Translations under genes and position numbers: made by a program
Part shown: one piece after another, positions 5,639 to 15,210 of the stretch
Layout: each line of letters begins with the position of its first letter
How positions within the stretch are numbered: the stretch's first letter is position 1
Source of the DNA: Anaerolineae bacterium
Lineage (GTDB): Bacteria; Chloroflexota; Anaerolineae; UBA4142
Reading direction: 5' to 3'
DNA length: 43,285 bases
Assembly: GCA_027457205.1 (NCBI GenBank)
Contig: DAIDTM010000108.1
Coordinates: 1-43,285 of the forward strand
Notes under the pieces: model-generated
The model's input: only the letters and a program-made list of their open reading frames with translations
Databases searched by the model: none
Told to the model about the DNA's origin: nothing

Positions 5639-6205
5639 GTGGATTACAGCGCACTCACCGACGAAGAAATCATAGCGCGATTGAAGAACGGCGAAAGCTG
5701 GGCGATGTCGGTCTTGTACGACCGCTACGCCCGGCTTGTTTTTTCGCTCGCGCTCAAAATCCTGAATGATCGCGGCGCGGCTGAAGAGACGGTGCAGGAA
5801 GTGTTCGTCAAAGTGTGGAAACGTTGCCGCGAGTACGACGCCCGGCGCGGCAAGTTTTCGTCATGGCTCACTGGCATCGCGCACAATCACGCCATCGACG
5901 AGCTGCGCCGGCGGCGCGTGCGCCCATCCGCTTCGGAAGGCGATGACGACGCGATGGATACGGTGTTGGACGAGGGACCCGCGCCGCTCGATCTAGCGGT
6001 GCAGAGTCTGGAACGCCGCCGCATCGTCGACGCGTTGAGGGGAATTCCGCAAGAGCAGCGCCGCGCGATCGAGATGGCGTACTTTGAAGGTCTGACGCAG
6101 CAGGAAATCTCGGATCGGCTTGGACAGCCGCTCGGCACGATCAAGACGCGAATGCGCCTGGGGATGCAAAAACTCAAGACGCTGCTGGAAGAGCCGGCGA
6201 CCTAA
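5639..6205 (+). CDS. ECF-type RNA polymerase sigma-70 family factor
   Basis: 188 aa with a GTG start. Region 2 (AEETVQEVFVKVW...WLTGIAHNHAIDELRRR) and region 4 (MAYFEGLTQQEISDRLGQPLGTIKTRMRLG) are recognisable. Confidence 0.9.
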   Translation: MDYSALTDEEIIARLKNGESWAMSVLYDRYARLVFSLALKILNDRGAAEETVQEVFVKVWKRCREYDARRGKFSSWLTGIAHNHAIDELRRRRVRPSASEGDDDAMDTVLDEGPAPLDLAVQSLERRRIVDALRGIPQEQRRAIEMAYFEGLTQQEISDRLGQPLGTIKTRMRLGMQKLKTLLEEPAT

Positions 6206-6309
6206 AAGCCACTCGACGTGATCGCCCGGCGCTGTCTCGATAAAATCGATGTATTAAACAAATCTAAATGTACGCCTTCTTCGTAGAATAGTTGGAAGGT
6301 GTTCTAGAA

Positions 6310-7086
6310 ATGTCGATTTGTGATGAACTACAGGAATTGTATCCGGCGTATGTGCTGGATGGCGTAGAGGATGCCGACCGCGCGCGTATCGAACAGCATT
6401 TGCCGCACTGCGCGAATTGCACGCGCATCGTCGCGGATTATCGTCCGATCGTCGATCTGCTGCCGTTCGCGGCGACGCCGGTGGAACCGCCGGCGGACTT
6501 GAAATATCGCGTTCTCGCGGCGACGATGCCAAAGGCGCGTCCCGCGCCGGCGTCGTTTGCCGCGCGCGTTTCCACCGGCTTTTCGAATTTCTTCCGCGCG
6601 CCGGCGTTCTCAGCCGTAGCGTTGCTGCTTATCGTCGCCCTTGGCATTTGGAATCTTTCGCTGCAAAACCAGATCACGCAGCAGGCAGCGTCGAATCAGC
6701 AGATGCTGACGGAATTGATGCGGCAGCGCGATTTTCTGATGACGATGTCGTACGCGAGCGGTCAGCCGCGGCAGTTGCAACCAACCCAGGTTGCGTCGCG
6801 CGCGGTCGGACGGCTGTACGGCTCGCCAGACGAGACGACGCTGGCGTTGATCGCGCTCGACCTACCGACGCTGCCCGCTGGTAAAGTTTATCAAGTGTGG
6901 CTCATCGATGCGAACGGCGACCGCACCAGCGGCGGTACGTTCAAGGTGGATGACCAGGGGCGCGGCTGGCTGCTGATCCGCGCGCCCAAGCCGCTCGGCA
7001 GTTATCAAGGGGTGGGCATTACTGAGGAGCCGGAAGGCGGCAGCCCTGCGCCTACTGGCGCAAAGATGCTGGGCACCAATCTGTGA
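6310..7086 (+). CDS. Anti-sigma factor (zf-HC2 N-terminus, one TM helix, RskA-type C-terminal domain)
   Basis: The ORF is open from TTG 6292, but ATG 6310 (MSICDELQ...) is the more likely start. Contains the H..HL..C..C zinc motif (HLPHCANCTR) and a TM helix (FSAVALLLIVALGIW). The C-terminus (KVYQVWLIDANGDRTSGGTF...GITEEPEGG) is typical of anti-sigma-K RskA domains. Confidence 0.85.
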   Translation: MSICDELQELYPAYVLDGVEDADRARIEQHLPHCANCTRIVADYRPIVDLLPFAATPVEPPADLKYRVLAATMPKARPAPASFAARVSTGFSNFFRAPAFSAVALLLIVALGIWNLSLQNQITQQAASNQQMLTELMRQRDFLMTMSYASGQPRQLQPTQVASRAVGRLYGSPDETTLALIALDLPTLPAGKVYQVWLIDANGDRTSGGTFKVDDQGRGWLLIRAPKPLGSYQGVGITEEPEGGSPAPTGAKMLGTNL

Positions 7087-7123
7087 TTGGGCTAATGGCA
7101 GGCAAAAGACGTACGCGCCAATG

Positions 7124-7166
7124 AAAAATATTCGCGGGAGAAACTACCTCTCCCGCGAATATTTTT
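7124..7166. terminator. Bidirectional intrinsic terminator between the anti-sigma gene and the island operon
   Basis: Perfect 18-bp stem, AAAAATATTCGCGGGAGA (7124-7141) / TCTCCCGCGAATATTTTT (7149-7166), with a 7-nt loop. An A-run precedes it and a T-run follows, so either strand reads hairpin plus U-tract. It lies 2 nt from the stop at 7169-7171. Confidence 0.7.
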
Positions 7167-7168
7167 GG

Positions 7169-8698
7169 TTATTTACCCACGCCCATCAAGATGCTGGAAG
7201 TTGGCTGCTTTAAATCTATCCGTACCGACGGACTGGGCGCACTTTCATTTTTGGCTACGTCGCTGAGCACATTTCGAAATACACGTGAAACCGGATGAGC
7301 CGAGGCGAAATTGAATGGACGAGTCCTCACTTTCGAGTTATTTAGGTGCATCATGAAAGATTCAAGCCTTAAATAGTCAGATGCCCTCAGCCATGGATAC
7401 TTTTGCTGATTGTACTCGAGGAATGGCAGCAATTTGCCATTCAGGTCTTGCAAATCCCAGCGTTCCCCATCTGGTGCCCTGGGAGAAAAGAGATAGTCCT
7501 CGTGTTGGCGAAAGAGAATCGAACCCGGGACCGGCGTAAATAGCATCGGAATGACCGATCCGACCTTCTGCGATGCATAGAGTGCAGTGTTGATTGTTAC
7601 CTGCAAATCCTCATCAGGTAGCCCAAAAATCACAAACGCATTCAAGTCTTGGCTACCGACTGCCCAGCCTGCCTTTTTCGCCACCTCAACTGCTCGCTCG
7701 AATGCTTCAATCGTGGCTTGTTTGCGATTCCAACCCCGTGCAATTTCATTGTCAATGGTCTCAAGCGCGAGGTGCAACTTACGAAAACCCGTTGCGCGCA
7801 TCTCGTTGAGAAACTCTAGATCAACGAGGCGCGGCTCAATGCCTTCGGGTGCGTAAATAGAAATCTTCAAGCCGCGCTTGCGAATTTCCGCAAGTCGCTC
7901 GAGAAAATCATCGCGGTTGAAAAGAAGATTGTCTTCATAGAACGCGAACTCGCGGACGCCGTATTTTTTGTATTTTTCTTCGATCTCGTCCGCAATCTCC
8001 TGAGGCGAACGACTCCTAACTTTTGGATTCTCGTGGTTTAGTTTAAGTTGTGCACAGTAGGCACAGTTAAAACGGCAACCACGGCTTCCGGTAATCAGAG
8101 CGTAGCGAGGTTTCGTTTCATAAAGATCGTCATTGTAGTAAAGCGACAGATCCGTCCTTGCGTTAGCCGCGTCGTCACAGATTTCACCGTCGACGACGTT
8201 TATGTCAATTCCTGCCCGTTCGCCCAGATGTCTGTTTGCGTGCTCGGGGTCAAGTGTTGGATAGATACCACCTACTAATATACGAGGAGTGTTTTGCGGG
8301 TAGACCCTCTTGACGACATCGATGACGTCACGCGTGCTCTCCCACCAGTACGTCATTATGGACGTGATCCAAATCTCTCCTGGGACGAATGACGTTTCTC
8401 TGAGACGTATTTCCAACTCGTCCAGAGACATCCCGAATGTCCAAAGCTGTTTGGCAATGTCGTCTCGTTGGACGACATCTCTGTGGCGCTGCCGCACACG
8501 GCGCTTACTATCAGTGGCGAGGCAATCAATCAGTCGCAGTTGCTCGTATCCATTCTTTCTCAGCCACGTTGCGACCTTGAGTAAGCCGTGTGGCTGACTC
8601 CAATAAGCCCAGTACTGTGTGTCGTAAATGGGCGGATTGATCAAGATTGCGCTTTTGGCACCATTCAGAACTTGAGATGGATTGTCACGTATAATCAC
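7169..8698 (-). CDS. Radical SAM enzyme with an N-terminal B12-binding-like (class-B-type) domain; intact CX3CX2C
   Basis: 509 aa. GSRGCRFNCAYC gives C208-x3-C212-x2-C215 (nt 8054-8077). The N-terminal ~150 aa has the Rossmann-like layout of class B radical SAM proteins (AILINPP...QPHGLL...GY..L.LIDCL; ITSIMTYWW). GTG 8698 is preceded by AAGGA. Last gene of the island operon. Confidence 0.85.
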   Translation of the reverse strand: MIIRDNPSQVLNGAKSAILINPPIYDTQYWAYWSQPHGLLKVATWLRKNGYEQLRLIDCLATDSKRRVRQRHRDVVQRDDIAKQLWTFGMSLDELEIRLRETSFVPGEIWITSIMTYWWESTRDVIDVVKRVYPQNTPRILVGGIYPTLDPEHANRHLGERAGIDINVVDGEICDDAANARTDLSLYYNDDLYETKPRYALITGSRGCRFNCAYCAQLKLNHENPKVRSRSPQEIADEIEEKYKKYGVREFAFYEDNLLFNRDDFLERLAEIRKRGLKISIYAPEGIEPRLVDLEFLNEMRATGFRKLHLALETIDNEIARGWNRKQATIEAFERAVEVAKKAGWAVGSQDLNAFVIFGLPDEDLQVTINTALYASQKVGSVIPMLFTPVPGSILFRQHEDYLFSPRAPDGERWDLQDLNGKLLPFLEYNQQKYPWLRASDYLRLESFMMHLNNSKVRTRPFNFASAHPVSRVFRNVLSDVAKNESAPSPSVRIDLKQPTSSILMGVGK

Positions 8699-8709
8699 GG
8701 GATTATTCC

Positions 8710-10041
8710 TTATCTAGTCGCGAGCGGAAGTGTTACCCTTAATTTAGGTTTCCACGTTTCGTTGGCAATGCTGTATCGCACCATCTGAGCAATTTGGTCG
8801 TCACCCAGGAAATCAAAGGTCGTGCTGCGATATTTGCTATTTAGGAGCGCAGCCAGTCGAGTCAGTTCTTGATAATCGGAGAAACTGGCACCATTAAACT
8901 TTGCAAACGGAAATAGTTTTCCGTTCTGTTTTTCCAACTCGGGAGGTAGATGTTTTTCGTATCTCTGATAGATGTCCGTGCCCGGAGTAGGTTGGAAAGG
9001 CACTAGATTCACAGATCCAACAATGTGTGCTAACCTCGTAAGGCGTTCCACTGTGTGGTCAAGATTCTCACTGGGATACCCAACTAGAACCATCGCCGTG
9101 ATGTCTTCCGTGCGCGGCTTATACCCACCGTGCGTCAACAAAAGTTCGATTCCGCGTTCGTAAGCACTCAAATCACCCTTTGCATCGGGGTCCAATGCAC
9201 GGTCATCATGCAGGAAAATTTGGCGATATCCTGCTTCTCTCATTTTGATGACTAGGTTCTGCGTTAATGCTTTGGGAGAAAGGTTGCCCAACGCGCGCAG
9301 TTTTATGTCGAGTCCCTTTTGAATAATTAGGTCAAGCACACCCTCGAAGTGTTTTGGATTCTTGCCGGGAATCTCGTCGTCAAAAAAAGCAAATTCCCGC
9401 ACGCCCAACGCGATCTTGGCTTCGATTTCCTTTACGATTTGATTGGCAGAGCGCGACCGGTTGAGTAGAACGCCCGAGAAGTGTGGCATCCTTTCGTACA
9501 AAGAAAGATCGGTCGCTTCTGTTTTTGCTTTCTTTCCAATTGTAGAGTCAAGTCGAACTCCGCGTAATTGCTGTCTAGCGTGGTTTGGGCACAGAGAAGC
9601 ATACACGCCGCCTAAGATGATCCGCGCCTTTGGAAATCGCTTCCGAACAAGTCTAACTAAATCCCGCGTGCTTTCCCACCAAAACGTCATCATACAGGTT
9701 ACGTAAATAACATCCGGCTTCCATTTTTCTTCTTTGAGGTCTTCAATCTTATCTTCGATCTGCTCCCATGACCAGCCAAAATGCCAGCGTGCAAGTTCAT
9801 GGTTTTCAACAGAGACCGAATCCAGTTTTTTTCGCTGAACGCGCTTGCCTTGTAATGGCTGTAAACAATCAAACAGCCGCACACCATAACCGCGTTCAAG
9901 TAGTAGGCTTCCAACTTGGAGTAATCCAAGTGGTTGATGCCAACGTGCCCAGTCGAGGCGAATGTCATAAACCGGTGGAGAGACGAGCAAGATTCGCTGT
10001 TGTTGGGTGTGCTGCTTTTTCAAAGATTTGCGTTTCATCAT
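8710..10041 (-). CDS. Radical-SAM-like paralog of 7169..8698 lacking the CX3CX2C cluster (probable pseudoenzyme partner)
   Basis: 443 aa. It aligns by eye to the downstream protein along its whole length: PP[IV]YD, QP.GLL, MT[YF]WWESTRD, ILGG[IV]Y, TDLSLY, GVREFAF, GSV...F.P.PG, NGKL.PF. The segment that should hold the Cys triad is deleted (...HFSGVLLNRSRSANQIVKEIE...). Only three Cys occur (C59, C116, C151), none clustered. The ATG overlaps the upstream stop (ATGA at 10038-10041). Confidence 0.8.
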   Translation of the reverse strand: MMKRKSLKKQHTQQQRILLVSPPVYDIRLDWARWHQPLGLLQVGSLLLERGYGVRLFDCLQPLQGKRVQRKKLDSVSVENHELARWHFGWSWEQIEDKIEDLKEEKWKPDVIYVTCMMTFWWESTRDLVRLVRKRFPKARIILGGVYASLCPNHARQQLRGVRLDSTIGKKAKTEATDLSLYERMPHFSGVLLNRSRSANQIVKEIEAKIALGVREFAFFDDEIPGKNPKHFEGVLDLIIQKGLDIKLRALGNLSPKALTQNLVIKMREAGYRQIFLHDDRALDPDAKGDLSAYERGIELLLTHGGYKPRTEDITAMVLVGYPSENLDHTVERLTRLAHIVGSVNLVPFQPTPGTDIYQRYEKHLPPELEKQNGKLFPFAKFNGASFSDYQELTRLAALLNSKYRSTTFDFLGDDQIAQMVRYSIANETWKPKLRVTLPLATR

Positions 10042-10994
10042 TTGGACTGTATGCCCAGTTGACGAAGCACATCTAGTCCATCTTGCTTGCGACAGCCGGG
10101 GTGTTGGAAAGATGCAAGAACGAACTTCCCGCTATGAACTTCGACTAACGGCATTTCAACAACCTGCCCGAGTTGCTGTTTGCTAAATGCGGGCAAAGTT
10201 GTTCCTTGGGGAGTTAGAGTGAATACAAAATGAAGTAAGTGCTCTTTCCAGCCTTCATAGTACACGGGTGGATAACAATAGCAGTCGAAGGAATTTATAT
10301 GAGCGATTTGGCGGATGAACAAAGGCACAGTCGCCTTAGTGCGGTAGTGTTCGGTGCTATCTATTGCCTTTCTCTCCGAGTACCATTTCAAAATACGCTG
10401 ATGTTTTCTCGAATAGGTTTCATTACCTATCCCGGTAAGGTAGCGGGAGAGTTCTGTGCCCAATGTATGCCGAACATTCAGCGTTAGTAGCAAAAGAAAG
10501 GGATGCGCCCTTTGCAGTTCTATCAAACGTTTTAGTGCCTGAATGCGCTTTGCTTCGCCCTTACTTTTATATCCCAAGCCGCCTTGGAAATCCCAATTGT
10601 GCAAATCGTACGTCATTCTTGGATTTTTGGTGCCTTCGGTTGCCAACAAGGCCGGAGCATTACCATCTATATCGACCCCATCCAGAATAATGTTTTCCAA
10701 GAAACCTCTTCGCAATTGCCAGTTCTCACTGAACCCATCCAATATCACATTTGTCTCGAGAGCATTGACTTTCCTAAGTTGCTCTTCAACTACTTTACCC
10801 CTCTTTGTTACAACTTCAATGCCTGTCTTGAATCCCAGATACTTTCCCCAATCGTGAAAATCACGAATGTCAGGACCCGGCAAACCGAAGTAATCTAGCG
10901 GTTTCTTTATACTACGACTGAACTTGGCAATTATGGGTTTGTCCCATCTACGCCGGATTGCCTCTTTATTCTGAGTTGAAGCAAGAGGGAGCAT
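10038..10994 (-). CDS. Hypothetical protein, island-specific; possible degenerate Rossmann/methyltransferase-like fold
   Basis: 318 aa. The ATG at 10994 directly abuts the upstream TAA (TAAATG). The stop overlaps the next start. I recognise no family. Motifs DYFGLPGPD (aa 34-42) and YDLHNWDFQGG (aa 129-139) loosely recall MTase motif I and the D.DPFG-type motif IV. Confidence 0.65.
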   Translation of the reverse strand: MLPLASTQNKEAIRRRWDKPIIAKFSRSIKKPLDYFGLPGPDIRDFHDWGKYLGFKTGIEVVTKRGKVVEEQLRKVNALETNVILDGFSENWQLRRGFLENIILDGVDIDGNAPALLATEGTKNPRMTYDLHNWDFQGGLGYKSKGEAKRIQALKRLIELQRAHPFLLLLTLNVRHTLGTELSRYLTGIGNETYSRKHQRILKWYSERKAIDSTEHYRTKATVPLFIRQIAHINSFDCYCYPPVYYEGWKEHLLHFVFTLTPQGTTLPAFSKQQLGQVVEMPLVEVHSGKFVLASFQHPGCRKQDGLDVLRQLGIQSK

Positions 10995-12683
10995 TTATTT
11001 CGCCTCCCCCAGGTCGCCTAATCGTGCAGCAATATCTTCCAATAAACGCTCATAGAGATCTGTATTAATACCTATATTGTCAGCTAGGGCGTCACTAATC
11101 GCAGAAATGATTTGCACATCCTCTTCCCGCATGCGCCAACCGCTATGAGTAATCACTTGTAGTAAGTTCAATATTGGAAGCTGTTTTGGTGCACCGCTCT
11201 CTGCGCTAGGTATCGGAATTGGAAGACCAACGTCCGTTGCCGCCTTTGCACCTTTTCGCTTTCGAACGGAAACAGGAGTTTGGTCGTCGATTTCCTTTTT
11301 CACCTGTTTCTGCAGATTCTTGGCGGTTGTTATTAAGCGAGTAGCCAAGGTTCTCTTGTCGCCGCTCGCTTTACCCTTTTGGCTCTGCAAATCACTCAAA
11401 ATGTCATCAAGTGCTGAGTATGCTTGGAACTCGTCGTAGGAACCCTCTGTGACTTTCTCTTTGACTTCCTTTATCCTATCAGGAGCATTTTGGATTATCT
11501 GGTCGGCTCGACGTGAGGCTTGTGCTTCCAGCGCAATTTTCTGAAGACTTTCTTTGTTCTGTGCTCCACTCAGGGTATATTTCACTGCCGCTTCTAAAGC
11601 ATCCTTCGCGGGGCTGGCCTCAAAATCATCTCTGGCACTGGTTGGGATTACTTCTGTGCTGATCACATAAACTTCTCCAGTCCACCATGGATAAATCTGT
11701 TTTCTAGTAAAATACGAACTGAGGTAGTTCCTATCCCCAATGGTGAAACCTTTGATTTTGTAGACCAACCCAGCAAACTCTGGAAATCCCCGAGACGACA
11801 AGGACTCGCTCTTACTTGTTAGACAAGCCCAATAGTATGCCATCGGTTTCCCGTTGGAATCATAGACGAATCCAATTCTCGGTGATTCTAGGTCCGGGAT
11901 ATTTGGTTTTTCAACTGTAACAGATTTGCTTCGTTCAATCTTAAGAATTATCTTGGCCGACTTGTATCCCTCAACATTCTTCTGAAGTGCTTTTTCAATC
12001 TCCTTGCCGTACTGAAACTCGGAACTAAATCTAACCGGTAGATTTCGTAGAATATAACCGCGCATCTCGTCAAGGTTTGATAGTCGGGCTATGTGTGTGT
12101 CGCTTAAGTTTTCCAGCTGTATCATTGTGAATGCCATTCCCTTACGTGTACTCTTGGCGAAGTGGTAAGCGATATGCCTATGAAGAAGCGTCGCCAGAGG
12201 AATGACTGGACGATTGGGGTCCTGTCGAGCGGCATCAAGTTTGTGCCGCATCTCACCGAATTCGAATTCAAGAATATGCTCCATCTCTTCCCCAGCGGTC
12301 TTGGTACGAATCACCAGGCGGTTACATAGATCAAATCCAGAATATATTCCGATGCCCCTAAATCCAACGTTTGACATGATGTCTTTTTGGGAAATAGCAA
12401 ACTCACGAGCTTGAAGAAGCTTGTTGTAATCCATTCCGTCGCCATAATCGAGTATGAATACAGAATTTCCCGTGACTTGAATTTCGACTGTCTCGGCATT
12501 CGCGTCTATCGAGTTTTGAGCATATTCTCTAATCGCATCCAAAGGATCTGTGTATAAACCTTTTGAAAGTATGTTTAATAACTCGCCTCCAATTTGACTT
12601 TCTGCAAGAGGGGGGTTGAAAGATTGCCCCTCTCTCAGATCTTTGGGAAATTGGCTTGTTGGTATTGTATCTAGTTTCGGCAT
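10995..12683 (-). CDS. GHKL-superfamily ATPase, Hsp90/MORC-like (HATPase_c_3-type) with a long helical, Lys-rich C-terminal region
   Basis: 562 aa. Has an N-box LYTDPLDAIREYAQNSIDA (compare Hsp90 LYSNKEIFLRELISN.SDA), DYGDGMD (DxGxG), and the G-box GFRGIGIYSGF (compare Hsp90 GQFGVGFYSAF). AAGGAG lies 6 nt before the ATG at 12683. Confidence 0.85.
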   Translation of the reverse strand: MPKLDTIPTSQFPKDLREGQSFNPPLAESQIGGELLNILSKGLYTDPLDAIREYAQNSIDANAETVEIQVTGNSVFILDYGDGMDYNKLLQAREFAISQKDIMSNVGFRGIGIYSGFDLCNRLVIRTKTAGEEMEHILEFEFGEMRHKLDAARQDPNRPVIPLATLLHRHIAYHFAKSTRKGMAFTMIQLENLSDTHIARLSNLDEMRGYILRNLPVRFSSEFQYGKEIEKALQKNVEGYKSAKIILKIERSKSVTVEKPNIPDLESPRIGFVYDSNGKPMAYYWACLTSKSESLSSRGFPEFAGLVYKIKGFTIGDRNYLSSYFTRKQIYPWWTGEVYVISTEVIPTSARDDFEASPAKDALEAAVKYTLSGAQNKESLQKIALEAQASRRADQIIQNAPDRIKEVKEKVTEGSYDEFQAYSALDDILSDLQSQKGKASGDKRTLATRLITTAKNLQKQVKKEIDDQTPVSVRKRKGAKAATDVGLPIPIPSAESGAPKQLPILNLLQVITHSGWRMREEDVQIISAISDALADNIGINTDLYERLLEDIAARLGDLGEAK

Positions 12684-12717
12684 TATAGACTCCTTGTCTT
12701 CACGGTTTTCAGATGAG

Positions 12718-13836
12718 TCATCTCAGGCAGTTACAGTTCGCATTGCACAAGTTCAAAGATCGCCGAATACTGTGGCTCTCCTTGCACAATGAGAACGCTA
12801 CCCTGTTGCCCCACAACGCACGTACTTGACGATGAATTGTGGAATAAACATTGGCGCGTACGGAATCAGGAATATGCCAATGGCTACCATCTTTTTCCAT
12901 ATTGTCAGGTTGCCATCCCATTGGAGGCAAGCCCCAACGCTCTGCACACGCCAGCAATTGGTTGTTTTTTTCGCGGTACGTTCCAACTGTAATATACTCA
13001 GGACGATGTCCGTCTTTATGCGCTTGGGCAAAGAATTCTGAGTATATATCCTCCCAGCCATCGGGTGTTAGAATAGGATCGATTCGCCAACGATAGTGAT
13101 AGCCCCATGATTGCACCTTTAGTCCAGCTTCTAGCCGCTTGCTGATTGGCGGAGTGATGCCTTCCCACAAATCCGCGATAGATTGGGGATTCAGCGAAAA
13201 CGAAACTACTACTCGGTCATTGTGCGGCAGGTCTTTCAGTTGGTCAACGTTCGCACTCTTGGTGAGGAGGATTAGTTTACAGCATTTAGGATTTGTACTT
13301 GTCTCACCAAACATTGGAATCACCCATTGGCTTATGTTCGTGTAACGGTCGTAGAGAAGACTATCAGAGCAATCGATACCCAGCCCGAGTGTTTCAGTCG
13401 AGCGGCGTTTTGAATCCAGTAGCCATGCTTGAATGTCGCGCTTCATTGTATTGTAGTTGGTATAAATCAGATGGCGGCGCGGATCGCGACGAATGCGATG
13501 CGTCAGCATCAAGAAACAACTACGGCATTGTAATCCACACGCGCCGCTACCAATAGCGACATCGTACCATATCGGAGGACAAAATGAGGTGAGGTGATCT
13601 TCAGTCGACATTCGCCAGGGTTTGATGAATGAAGAACGTCGTTCTGTTTCCAAAATACTTACTGGTGCGTCAAGCCCTGTGATCTCGGGAGGTAATGTAA
13701 CTTGGCGCCATTCGCCCATCGCAACTTGTTGATCAACCCACCAACTGACTGGTTTTTCTCGATGAGAAGTATGAGCGTCGCCGGTAACCAGAAGAAAGGG
13801 GTTTGCATCCTTGGTTCGCCTCAGGTCAATCGTCAC
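12718..13836 (-). CDS. Radical SAM protein of the spore-photoproduct-lyase (SplB/COG1533-like) family
   Basis: ACGLQCRSC is a CX3CX2C triad (nt 13516-13539). KLILLTKSANVDQL...VVVSFSLNPQSIADLWEGITPPISKRLEAGLKVQSWGYHYRWRIDPI matches the SPL-family core pattern I recall (LLTKS...SLNP...E..tp....RL.A......GY......PI). The ORF is open to TTG 13860. GTG 13836 has a perfect SD (GGGAGG, 5-nt spacer), so I call that start. The C-terminus has a Cys cluster, CNANCNC. Confidence 0.8.
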   Translation of the reverse strand: MTIDLRRTKDANPFLLVTGDAHTSHREKPVSWWVDQQVAMGEWRQVTLPPEITGLDAPVSILETERRSSFIKPWRMSTEDHLTSFCPPIWYDVAIGSGACGLQCRSCFLMLTHRIRRDPRRHLIYTNYNTMKRDIQAWLLDSKRRSTETLGLGIDCSDSLLYDRYTNISQWVIPMFGETSTNPKCCKLILLTKSANVDQLKDLPHNDRVVVSFSLNPQSIADLWEGITPPISKRLEAGLKVQSWGYHYRWRIDPILTPDGWEDIYSEFFAQAHKDGHRPEYITVGTYREKNNQLLACAERWGLPPMGWQPDNMEKDGSHWHIPDSVRANVYSTIHRQVRALWGNRVAFSLCKESHSIRRSLNLCNANCNCLR

Positions 13837-13898
13837 ATAAGCCTCCCTTGCTAGCTTCAAGGGGATGCATCAAGAGGAACGGTTGTTCGATGACCAGC

Positions 13899-13927
13899 AT
13901 TATAGCATATCGGGCGCGCGGCGTCAA
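13899..13927 (-). promoter_or_regulatory. Near-consensus sigma70 promoter of the island operon
   Basis: Read on the minus strand: TTGACG (13927-13922), 17-nt spacer, TGcTATAAT with the extended -10 (TATAAT = 13904-13899). It lies about 60 nt upstream of the GTG at 13836. Confidence 0.55.
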
Positions 13928-14018
13928 CGCGAAAACGAATATTACAGGAAGCGTGATTCTACGATGCAAAACGGAGCGCCGCGTTACCACAGCACTCCGT
14001 TGAATTCGCGCGATGGCT

Positions 14019-14771
14019 CTATCGCGATGCGCCCGGCGTCGTGGCGACCTTTGACGCCGCTTTGGGCTTGGGAAGCATAAAACGCGAGAGGAAGAGCGCC
14101 AGCTCAAAGAGGATGAGCATCGGCACCATCACCACCATCGGCGCGACAATGGGATCGGACACCGGCGTGATGAGCTCGGCAAAGACGAAGAGCACGAAAT
14201 ACGCGATGCGGCGCTGCTTGCGGAGAAAGTCGGGCGTGACCAGACCGAGTTTCATCAGGATCAGCATGAGGATCGGCAATTCAAACGCGAGACCCACGGC
14301 GATCATGAAATAGACGACGAACGAGATGTACTGGTCTGCCCCCGGCAAATACGTGAGCGAGCTGCCGAACATCGCGCGCATGACGGTCACCATATTTGCC
14401 AGCATCAGGTAGCCAAACAAGTTTCCCAGCAAGAACAGAAACACCATGCCGGCGACGCCGGGAATGACGTACCTCTTTTCGCTACGCGTCAAGCCGGGCT
14501 CGAGGTATCGCACTGTTTGGTAAAGCCACACCGGCGCGGCAAGCGTCACTCCGCCGTATAGCGCGATGCGAAAGTGAATCAGAAAGCCATCCATCAGACC
14601 GTGCGTGACGAGTTTGAGATCGCCGGCGGGACGGGTTAGAATCTCCAAAATCGCATCGGAGAAAACGTACGAGAGCGCGGTGGTTACGAGGATGGCGATA
14701 ATCGATATAATCAGACGGCTGCGGAGTTCTTCGATATGTTCCAGAACTCCCATCCGCTTTTCTTCTGTCAT
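14019..14771 (-). CDS. tatC: Twin-arginine translocase subunit TatC
   Basis: 250 aa. Contains VLEHIEELRSRLI, and the six-TM layout typical of TatC runs through the sequence. Confidence 0.95.
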   Translation of the reverse strand: MTEEKRMGVLEHIEELRSRLIISIIAILVTTALSYVFSDAILEILTRPAGDLKLVTHGLMDGFLIHFRIALYGGVTLAAPVWLYQTVRYLEPGLTRSEKRYVIPGVAGMVFLFLLGNLFGYLMLANMVTVMRAMFGSSLTYLPGADQYISFVVYFMIAVGLAFELPILMLILMKLGLVTPDFLRKQRRIAYFVLFVFAELITPVSDPIVAPMVVMVPMLILFELALFLSRFMLPKPKAASKVATTPGASR

Positions 14772-14871
14772 ATTGCCGAATCGTCCTTACATCACGTCGA
14801 GTAGGTCAAACAGAAAGAGATGCCAGAGCGGCATCCCCTCCCGTTTCCAATCGCAAAACGATCGACCTGTG

Positions 14872-15153
14872 TTACTGCGCCGCGCCGCACTCGGGGCAGA
14901 ATTTCATACCAGCGTTAATGAACTTGTTGCAGCTCTTGCACGCGACCTGGGCGACCGGCTCTTCCTTCCTCACTTCCACCGGTTTCTGGACTTCGTCAGT
15001 AAAACCTTGCGTTGCTTCCCTAGTGGCGGATTGGAATTCTTTGAGCGTCTTTCCGACCGCGCGCCCGATCTCCGGCAAGCGCGAGGGACCAAAAATGATC
15101 AGCGCGGCCACAGCAATGATGACCAAATGAGTGGGCTGTAAACCGAACGGCAT
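14872..15153 (-). CDS. tatA: Twin-arginine translocase TatA/E-family protein fused to a C-terminal zinc-ribbon
   Basis: 93 aa from ATG 15153, with AAAGGAG 8 nt upstream; the ORF track extends to 15210. [41 protein letters not shown] is the canonical TatA TM plus amphipathic helix. The C-terminus [19 protein letters not shown] is a CxxC...CxxC ribbon. Confidence 0.85.
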
Positions 15154-15210
15154 TTCAAACACTCCTTTCAACTCGAACGCGTCTACGGCGACGCGCAACC
15201 TTCCATCCAA

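Follow-up and report, generated by a model that had tools for sequence, protein, structure and literature searches.

The stretch of DNA analysed here (hereafter the window) covers positions 1 to 43,285 of the forward strand of contig DAIDTM010000108.1, from the Anaerolineae bacterium assembly GCA_027457205.1 (Chloroflexota; UBA4142), and contains a five-gene operon, A-B-C-D-E, whose last two genes encode related proteins of the radical S-adenosylmethionine (SAM) type. Gene E (7169..8698, minus strand; 509 amino acids (aa), GTG start) encodes an intact radical SAM enzyme that is class-B-like and distantly BchE-like, and gene D (8710..10041, minus strand; 443 aa, ATG start) encodes a paralog of E without the cluster motif. 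Loss of this motif is ancient, single, and conserved, D and E are found side by side wherever the pair was located, and we favor, as a reading somewhat better supported than not, that D serves E as a partner subunit without catalytic activity, the two belonging to an uncharacterised system of defence or modification directed at DNA.

Aligned by BLASTP, D and E are 31% identical with 51% positives over essentially their full length (E-value 2e-64), a similarity far beyond chance. The first-pass annotation of this DNA had proposed that D is a full-length paralog of E on the strength of shared sequence blocks, and the pairwise alignment confirms the homology, with each of the blocks recovered (PPVYD/PPIYD, QPLGLL/QPHGLL, MTFWWESTRD/MTYWWESTRD, TDLSLY, GVREFAFF/GVREFAFY, and NGKLFPF/NGKLLPF). 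From its N-terminus onward, D consists of a Rossmann domain of the B12-binding-like type, then a degenerate radical-SAM barrel, and finally a helical region. Motif conservation was compared in an alignment of 66 D-family and 118 E-family sequences, in which the E family holds GSRGCPFxCxYCAQ, AFYEDNLL, APEGxEPRL, LALETxD, NAFVxFGxPxE, and GSVxPMLFTPVPGS at 90% conservation or higher. The D family retains the N-terminal Rossmann signature (LLxxPPxYDxRLxW..WxQPxGLL, WW, LGGxY..HA) as well as FxDD, GxPxE, and GSV..P.Q; it lacks the APEG and LALET motifs, both of which are conserved in E, and bears a very strongly conserved C-terminal motif of its own, RLAALLNSKYRSxTFDFLG…W.P. D-family proteins are also the more basic of the two (median isoelectric point 8.45 vs 6.86 for E). 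In both proteins, a basic beta-hairpin is inserted in the Rossmann domain (D residues 70-88, ~9778-9834; E residues ~70-90, ~8429-8491) and ends in a conserved W-x-FG; judged by its composition, it could be a nucleic-acid-binding element.

The two copies part at the cluster site. E reads GSRGCRFNCAYCAQ at this place, with its CX3CX2C motif (C208, C212, and C215) at 8054..8077 on the minus strand, and these three residues are 100% conserved and the sole invariant cysteines among the E-family members. Opposite this motif, D has an in-frame gap of ~22-27 residues, and members of its family show 17-24 gap columns over the stretch aligned with E residues 200-235. Pairwise and family alignments place the site of the missing loop at 9436..9471 on the minus strand (residues ~191-202, VLLNRS/RSANQI), with the junction between residues 196 and 197 (...GVLLNRS/RSANQI..., ~nucleotides (nt) 9453/9454), which falls inside the interval 9442-9480 that had earlier been given for the site in D where the motif is missing. 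D contains exactly three cysteines, as had been counted before; they are scattered and form no C-x3-C-x2-C. With the Pfam Radical_SAM profile (PF04055; cutoff 29.5 bits), E reaches 80.6 bits and D gives no match at an E-value of 0.1 or less. Of the features that define the radical SAM superfamily, D has the partial TIM-barrel fold and lacks both the cysteine motif and a qualifying profile score. With neither a CX3CX2C nor an invariant cysteine in its family, D cannot ligate the SAM-cleaving [4Fe-4S] cluster canonically, in agreement with what had been claimed for it. Source annotations label D-family proteins either 'hypothetical' or 'YgiQ-like radical SAM', and annotation as radical SAM enzymes is inappropriate for them.

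The same deletion is shared by the orthologs of D, a point that the first-pass annotation had named as a check. A search of 5.8 billion proteins gave ~74 D-type homologs at 35-100% identity, with C-x3-C-x2-C in none of them. For the E family, 795 matches were obtained at an E-value of 1e-20 or below. A profile search was also made of a library of 1.84 billion cluster representatives, the proteins found being sorted with separate D-family and E-family hidden Markov models, which split them cleanly; among the top 150, none of the ~60 clear D-type representatives (fragments included) carries the motif, and CX3CX2C is present in every full-length E-type or outgroup protein. A neighbor-joining tree groups the D proteins in a single monophyletic clade whose sister is the E clade, every member of which has the cysteines; the motif was therefore lost once, after one duplication. 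One protein, P0068, was considered as a D homolog that had kept its cysteines and was rejected: its position in the tree is basal within the E clade, which disqualifies it as an intermediate. Both genes are under purifying selection, with ratios of nonsynonymous to synonymous substitution (dN/dS) of 0.11-0.18 for D and 0.10-0.14 for E when measured against the closest ortholog, at locus L022 (88% amino-acid identity in D). Over 16 loci, D has diverged 1.56x faster than E, and the distance matrices of the two proteins are correlated (r=0.85).

D has also retained the fold. Its AlphaFold2 model (predicted local distance difference test (pLDDT) 93, predicted template modelling score (pTM) 0.88) consists of a Rossmann domain, a barrel, and a helical C-terminus, and the first barrel strand (residues 188-191) leads straight into the helix at 199-211 with a pLDDT of ~95. 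The best structural matches of the model in the PDB, found with Foldseek, are AprD4 (1.3e-10), TokK (1.7e-7), and MtaB, with a probability of 1.0 and a template modelling (TM) score of ~0.5; all three are radical SAM enzymes (or a model of one) that begin with a domain of the Rossmann type. AprD4, the closest neighbor, has a B12-like domain that is not known to bind cobalamin, so the fold of D does not by itself predict cobalamin binding. At the sequence level, the B12-binding domain profile PF02310 matches D marginally (33.9 bits vs a cutoff of 32.1) and stays below the cutoff on E (15.2 bits) despite the homologous domain; in precomputed Pfam assignments, PF02310 is listed on most D orthologs, whereas most E orthologs are listed with PF04055 only. 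An Rfam scan of the window returned no match at all, and hence no cobalamin riboswitch. Both proteins are distant from the curated families. The best NCBIfam match of E is BchE (72.9 bits vs a cutoff of 481; 2.4e-20) and that of D is TIGR04072 (30.5 bits vs a cutoff of 360), and neither protein reaches the trusted cutoff of a curated class B subfamily (BchE, HpnJ, HpnR, PhpK, ladderane rSAM, and others). When the PDB was searched by sequence, E matched only HemN (1e-3) and a D profile matched nothing.

The pairing of D with E is as constant as the missing loop. At each of the 21 distinct loci examined, the gene next upstream of E, on the same strand, is D, and the adjacency holds in 5/5 loci that were reached through E-family proteins as well as in two basal lineages whose D is one that Pfam fails to recognise. 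The tight coupling that had been remarked upon in the window is therefore general: the spacing ranges from -4 to +14 nt across the loci, with ATGA overlaps in several. In the window, E begins 11 nt after D on the minus strand, and its GTG start is preceded by an AAGGA Shine-Dalgarno sequence. The hosts are mostly Chloroflexota, along with Pyrinomonadaceae (Acidobacteriota) and Ignavibacteriae. Apart from D and E, the operons change. Between the window and L022, D is 88% and E 84% identical and the upstream gene is unrelated, and the B and C genes of the window are closest to those of loci in which D is only 33-35% identical. As the remaining genes are not conserved along with D and E, the two form a single cassette in both inheritance and exchange. 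Nor is the gene upstream of D a conserved family, given that an hhalign comparison of the PP_RS20740-type profile of C with the ~250-aa and ~355-aa proteins that precede D in other operon classes gave no homology. The pair thus displays what distinguishes known pairs of an enzyme and a pseudoenzyme, namely paralogy, loss of catalytic residues in one copy, selection on both, and co-inheritance. In two metagenome-assembled genome (MAG) loci, E is split into two open reading frames (ORFs) by an apparent frameshift (L007, 11238-12795; L013, 11350-12784) and D is intact, which reflects either an assembly error or an occasional inactivation of the catalytic copy.

Judging from this synteny and co-inheritance, D and E most likely form a heteromer. 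It is unlikely, although an alternative to be taken seriously, that D functions independently of E, whether as a ligand carrier or sensor (for cobalamin, SAM, 5'-deoxyadenosine, or a nucleotide), as a regulator, or as the enzyme of a separate pathway step. D passes the Pfam threshold for B12 binding that E does not, most of its orthologs carry PF02310, and it has kept some of the barrel motifs (FxDD, GxPxE, GSVxxxPxQ); moreover, a complex and a pathway look the same to synteny alone. However, the range of spacings, the ATGA overlaps, and a strict 1:1 co-inheritance that persists through the shuffling of the surrounding modules typify stoichiometric partners, and what D has preserved is the whole two-domain architecture of E, which goes beyond a ligand-binding domain.

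The company that the cassette keeps suggests what a D-E heteromer might act upon. The cassette was found in at least four operon architectures, in each of which D-E comes after the genes named here. The first comprises a DUF5131 radical SAM gene, a GHKL ATPase gene, and a gene for a ~250-aa protein, with or without a HerA/DndH-like ATPase; the second, to which the window and L019 belong, comprises a GHKL ATPase and a PP_RS20740-like protein; in the third, a ZorD/DpdE-like SNF2 helicase lies between two ~355-aa paralogs; and in the fourth, D-E follows a type IIG methyltransferase. L019 additionally has a type IIG restriction endonuclease-methyltransferase (1090 bits). Among the other neighbors, the ZorD/DpdE-like SNF2 helicase was matched at 1e-56 and the DndH-like ATPase at 1.6e-47, the DUF5131 gene of L015 matches 'radical SAM mobile pair protein A' (TIGR04471; 2.7e-25), and a MkoA/DpdJ-like helicase, DUF3800 genes, toxin-antitoxin pairs, and group II introns also occur near D-E loci. 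An operon context that so resembles restriction-modification (R-M) and defence makes DNA or nucleotides the likely substrate.

Two of these neighborhoods have peculiarities of their own. The ~355-aa proteins (L022, 213-1289; L016, 3949-5013 and 6895-7962; L007, 5948-7042 and 8931-9974) have no Pfam match, although the two copies in L016 gave weak PADLOC matches to PDC-M38A and PD-Lambda-5_A, and the pair of them around the SNF2 helicase replaces the GHKL ATPase and methyltransferase-fold genes upstream of D-E. In L023, which belongs to a basal lineage, D-E is followed by genes for a 227-aa protein and an NT5C-family 5'(3')-deoxyribonucleotidase (5977-7244), which hints that the substrate in some lineages may be nucleotides rather than DNA.

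Most class B radical SAM enzymes act in lipid, cofactor, or natural-product tailoring, and D-E could likewise be metabolic, with its DNA and defence neighbors being coincidental residents of shared islands; we regard this as rather improbable. The closest curated families (BchE, HpnJ, the ladderane lipid enzyme, and P-methyltransferases, all weak matches) are in keeping with such a role, as are the lack of a PADLOC match and the few interpretable neighbors at L021 and L010. On the other hand, the neighbor architectures number at least four, each is made up of nucleic-acid enzymes encoded right beside the pair and on its strand, and biosynthetic genes never recur.

It is very improbable that D is still a radical enzyme which holds an Fe-S cluster through non-canonical, non-contiguous ligands, in the manner of Dph2 or the ThiC type. 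Non-canonical cluster ligation occurs elsewhere in radical SAM-type chemistry, and D has kept a barrel-like fold; yet none of the cysteines of the 66 D-family members is invariant, the best conserved of them (C59, 79%) is a Rossmann-domain residue that E has as well, the total falls to 0-2 cysteines in some orthologs, and the LALET and APEG motifs of E are not conserved. That the motif was removed by a sequencing or assembly deletion, or that D is a decaying pseudogene, was a prior possibility only and is already refuted by the recurrence of the same in-frame gap in ~70 independent orthologs from different samples and phyla, by the dN/dS of D, and by its intact, full-length ORF and its confident AlphaFold2 model. 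The apparent frameshifts of L007 and L013 are in E and not in D.

Several observations nevertheless weigh against D being a partner subunit in a DNA-directed system. The observed synteny and co-inheritance would equally suit a pair of proteins that act in sequence and do not bind each other; the paired D-E sequences are too few for an analysis of inter-protein covariation; and no natural fusion of D to E was found among the long matches. (Three candidates, P0372, P0398, and P0345, were rejected as D-E fusions because each joins two Cys-containing radical SAM domains.) Cobalamin use would have to be argued from a B12-binding Pfam profile whose threshold D passes only narrowly and E does not reach. 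In PADLOC-DB v2, D has no match, E matches only PDC-M51A (1e-4), and A, B, and C match nothing meaningful; at the other loci, the neighbors match single defence components (type IIG R-M, ZorD/DpdE, DndH, MkoA, DUF3800) and no complete known system. A tblastn search of phage and plasmid collections with E found no member of the family, the matches being distant radical SAM genes of a generic kind, and a scan of IMG/VR contigs with the D profile found no relatives. The link to DNA and defence is one of guilt by association across ~20 experimentally uncharacterised metagenomic loci.

We propose the following course of events for D as the partner subunit of E. A single ancient duplication of a radical SAM enzyme would have given rise to both genes, after which the cluster loop was deleted and the SAM-ribose motifs decayed in the copy that became D, leaving it a catalytically dead structural paralog, or pseudoenzyme, of E. 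The two would be co-expressed, probably by coupled translation, and would most likely assemble into a D-E heteromer in which the cluster, and with it the cleavage of SAM, belongs to E only. D, with its Rossmann-like domain, barrel scaffold, and C-terminal motif, may serve in substrate recognition or in docking E to variable partners. The cassette as a whole would be a portable module of horizontally transferred operons of the R-M or defence type, its substrate likely being DNA or a nucleotide and its most plausible role being to install or elaborate a DNA modification or to act as a radical-based effector.

A more specific version of this scheme can be advanced only tentatively. D-E may be the conserved catalytic core of an unrecognised family of radical-SAM DNA modification or restriction systems, and the first class-B-like heteromer of an active and a cluster-less subunit, in which radical (possibly cobalamin-dependent) chemistry alkylates or elaborates a base marked by the co-encoded methyltransferase, with interchangeable modules for sensing and restriction (GHKL ATPase, type IIG R-M, SNF2 helicase, and DndH-like ATPase). 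The chance that D-E is the sign of a new, radical-SAM-based family of systems for DNA modification or defence is moderate. A radical SAM enzyme is usually regarded as a catalyst complete in itself, and a long-conserved, cluster-less pseudo-subunit paired with an active copy would, if true, represent a new organisational principle in the class-B-like branch. D-E would give enzymologists a defined two-protein target, and, in the company of DNA methyltransferases, GHKL ATPases, and defence-type helicases on horizontally transferred islands of uncultured Chloroflexota, Acidobacteriota, and Ignavibacteriae, the cassette may mark an undescribed family of DNA modification or defence by radical chemistry.

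In the window, D-E forms the 3' end of the operon, whose genes abut or overlap; the stop codon of C overlaps the start codon of D by 4 nt. The operon occupies a 6.8-kb island of low GC content (7100..13950; composition profile and ORF map) between an ECF sigma / anti-sigma pair (5639-7086) and tatC/tatA (14019-15210). With 45-50% GC in flanks of ~60%, the island was probably acquired horizontally; no tRNA genes, integrase, or flanking direct repeats marking its ends were found in the window. A near-consensus sigma-70-type promoter upstream of A (13899..13927, minus strand; TTGACG, 17 nt, TG-TATAAT; 11/12 matches), recognised by pattern match only, likely drives the operon. At the other end, 3 nt past the stop codon of E, a hairpin (7124..7166) whose 18-bp stem is perfectly paired around a 7-nt loop and bordered by A/T runs lies between the convergent anti-sigma gene and E; it probably serves as a bidirectional terminator at the close of the operon.

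The operon encodes three proteins of the radical-SAM fold, A being the third. Gene A (12718..13860, minus strand; 380 aa) encodes a radical SAM protein that resembles spore photoproduct lyase (SPL) and has an intact CX3CX2C (CGLQCRSC). It belongs with SPL at the level of the Pfam family (PF20903, 9.2e-16; 58 bits vs 27) and falls so far below the cutoff of TIGR04070 (72 bits vs 400) that it is SPL-like rather than an SPL ortholog. A sits where DUF5131 radical SAM genes sit in related operons (L001, L014, L015, and L018), and DUF5131 and SPL share megacluster 5 of RadicalSAM.org (PMC9477430). Gene B (10995..12683, minus strand) encodes a 562-aa GHKL ATPase (HATPase_c_3; PF13589, 2.2e-12) whose N-terminus resembles MutL, MORC, and restriction enzymes of the BbrUII/HgiDII type (NCBIfam mutL and restrict_BbrUII, ~1e-6), and homologs of it adjoin D-E in L013, L019, L023, and L024. 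Gene C (10038..10994, minus strand) encodes a 318-aa protein of the PP_RS20740 family (NF047698 / PF28273; NCBIfam 3e-6), homologs of which carry PF28273 and whose existing annotation is uninformative. Its AlphaFold2 model (pLDDT 91.7) predicts a class I SAM-methyltransferase fold with high confidence, with Foldseek matches to Trm1 and other SAM methyltransferases (~1e-5, probability 1.0). The invariant motifs of C are YFGLPGPDIxD, E60, and N133-W-D135-F, the last of these being an unusual stand-in for (D/N)PP(Y/F).

Literature searches found no description of a cluster-less radical SAM paralog paired with an active copy or of the D-E operon; a term search of a defence-system discovery preprint did not find the pair, and DUF5131 and PP_RS20740 received only incidental mentions. 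A 2026 review of B12-dependent radical SAM enzymes contains, by term search, no mention of heterodimers or partner subunits, and with no comparable heteromer or pseudo-subunit case there or in the wider literature, the suggestion that a non-catalytic paralog is an uncommon arrangement among these enzymes has held. Paralogous pairs of an enzyme and a pseudoenzyme are already known, as are radical SAM enzymes in defence (viperins and Ophion).

Like the class B radical SAM enzymes BchE, TokK, and TsrM, and like AprD4, D and E have an N-terminal Rossmann-like domain that resembles the B12-binding type, followed by a radical SAM partial barrel. They differ from these in being a conserved two-gene pair of which one copy is without the cluster motif, in a context of DNA and defence rather than biosynthesis, and in scoring far below every curated subfamily cutoff. 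In its apparent history, D-E resembles the eukaryotic pair Dph1-Dph2 of radical SAM-type diphthamide synthesis, METTL3-METTL14, and the ketosynthase/chain-length-factor pairs, all of them enzyme-pseudoenzyme pairs of paralogs that arose by duplication, lost catalysis in one copy, and kept both as a functional unit. Dph2 retains an Fe-S cluster and has a different fold, and the complexes of these known pairs have been demonstrated biochemically, whereas a D-E complex is predicted from synteny and co-inheritance.

Prokaryotic viperins (pVips) and the Ophion system, in which the radical SAM enzyme OpnA acts in anti-phage defence (bioRxiv 10.1101/2025.09.30.679545), likewise place a radical SAM enzyme within an operon of the defence type. 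Theirs is a single viperin-like subunit with neither a B12-like domain nor a dead paralog, and the partners in Ophion are PHP and PRTase. The likeness to SPL and to the DUF5131 and TIGR04471 families, which lies in the SPL-like gene A and in the related operons with DUF5131, also joins D-E to DNA-associated types of radical SAM protein, but it concerns A, which is not always present with D-E, and neither D nor E. The Dnd and Dpd systems, which defend by DNA modification and have swappable restriction modules, share with D-E the neighboring DndH-like ATPase, DpdE/ZorD-like SNF2 helicase, DpdJ/MkoA-like helicase, DNA methyltransferases, and GHKL ATPases, and they are built in the same way, with a conserved core to which variable helicase and ATPase modules are added. 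They differ in the core itself: the modification genes DndA-E and DpdA-C are absent from the D-E operons, and the core is instead the radical SAM pair.

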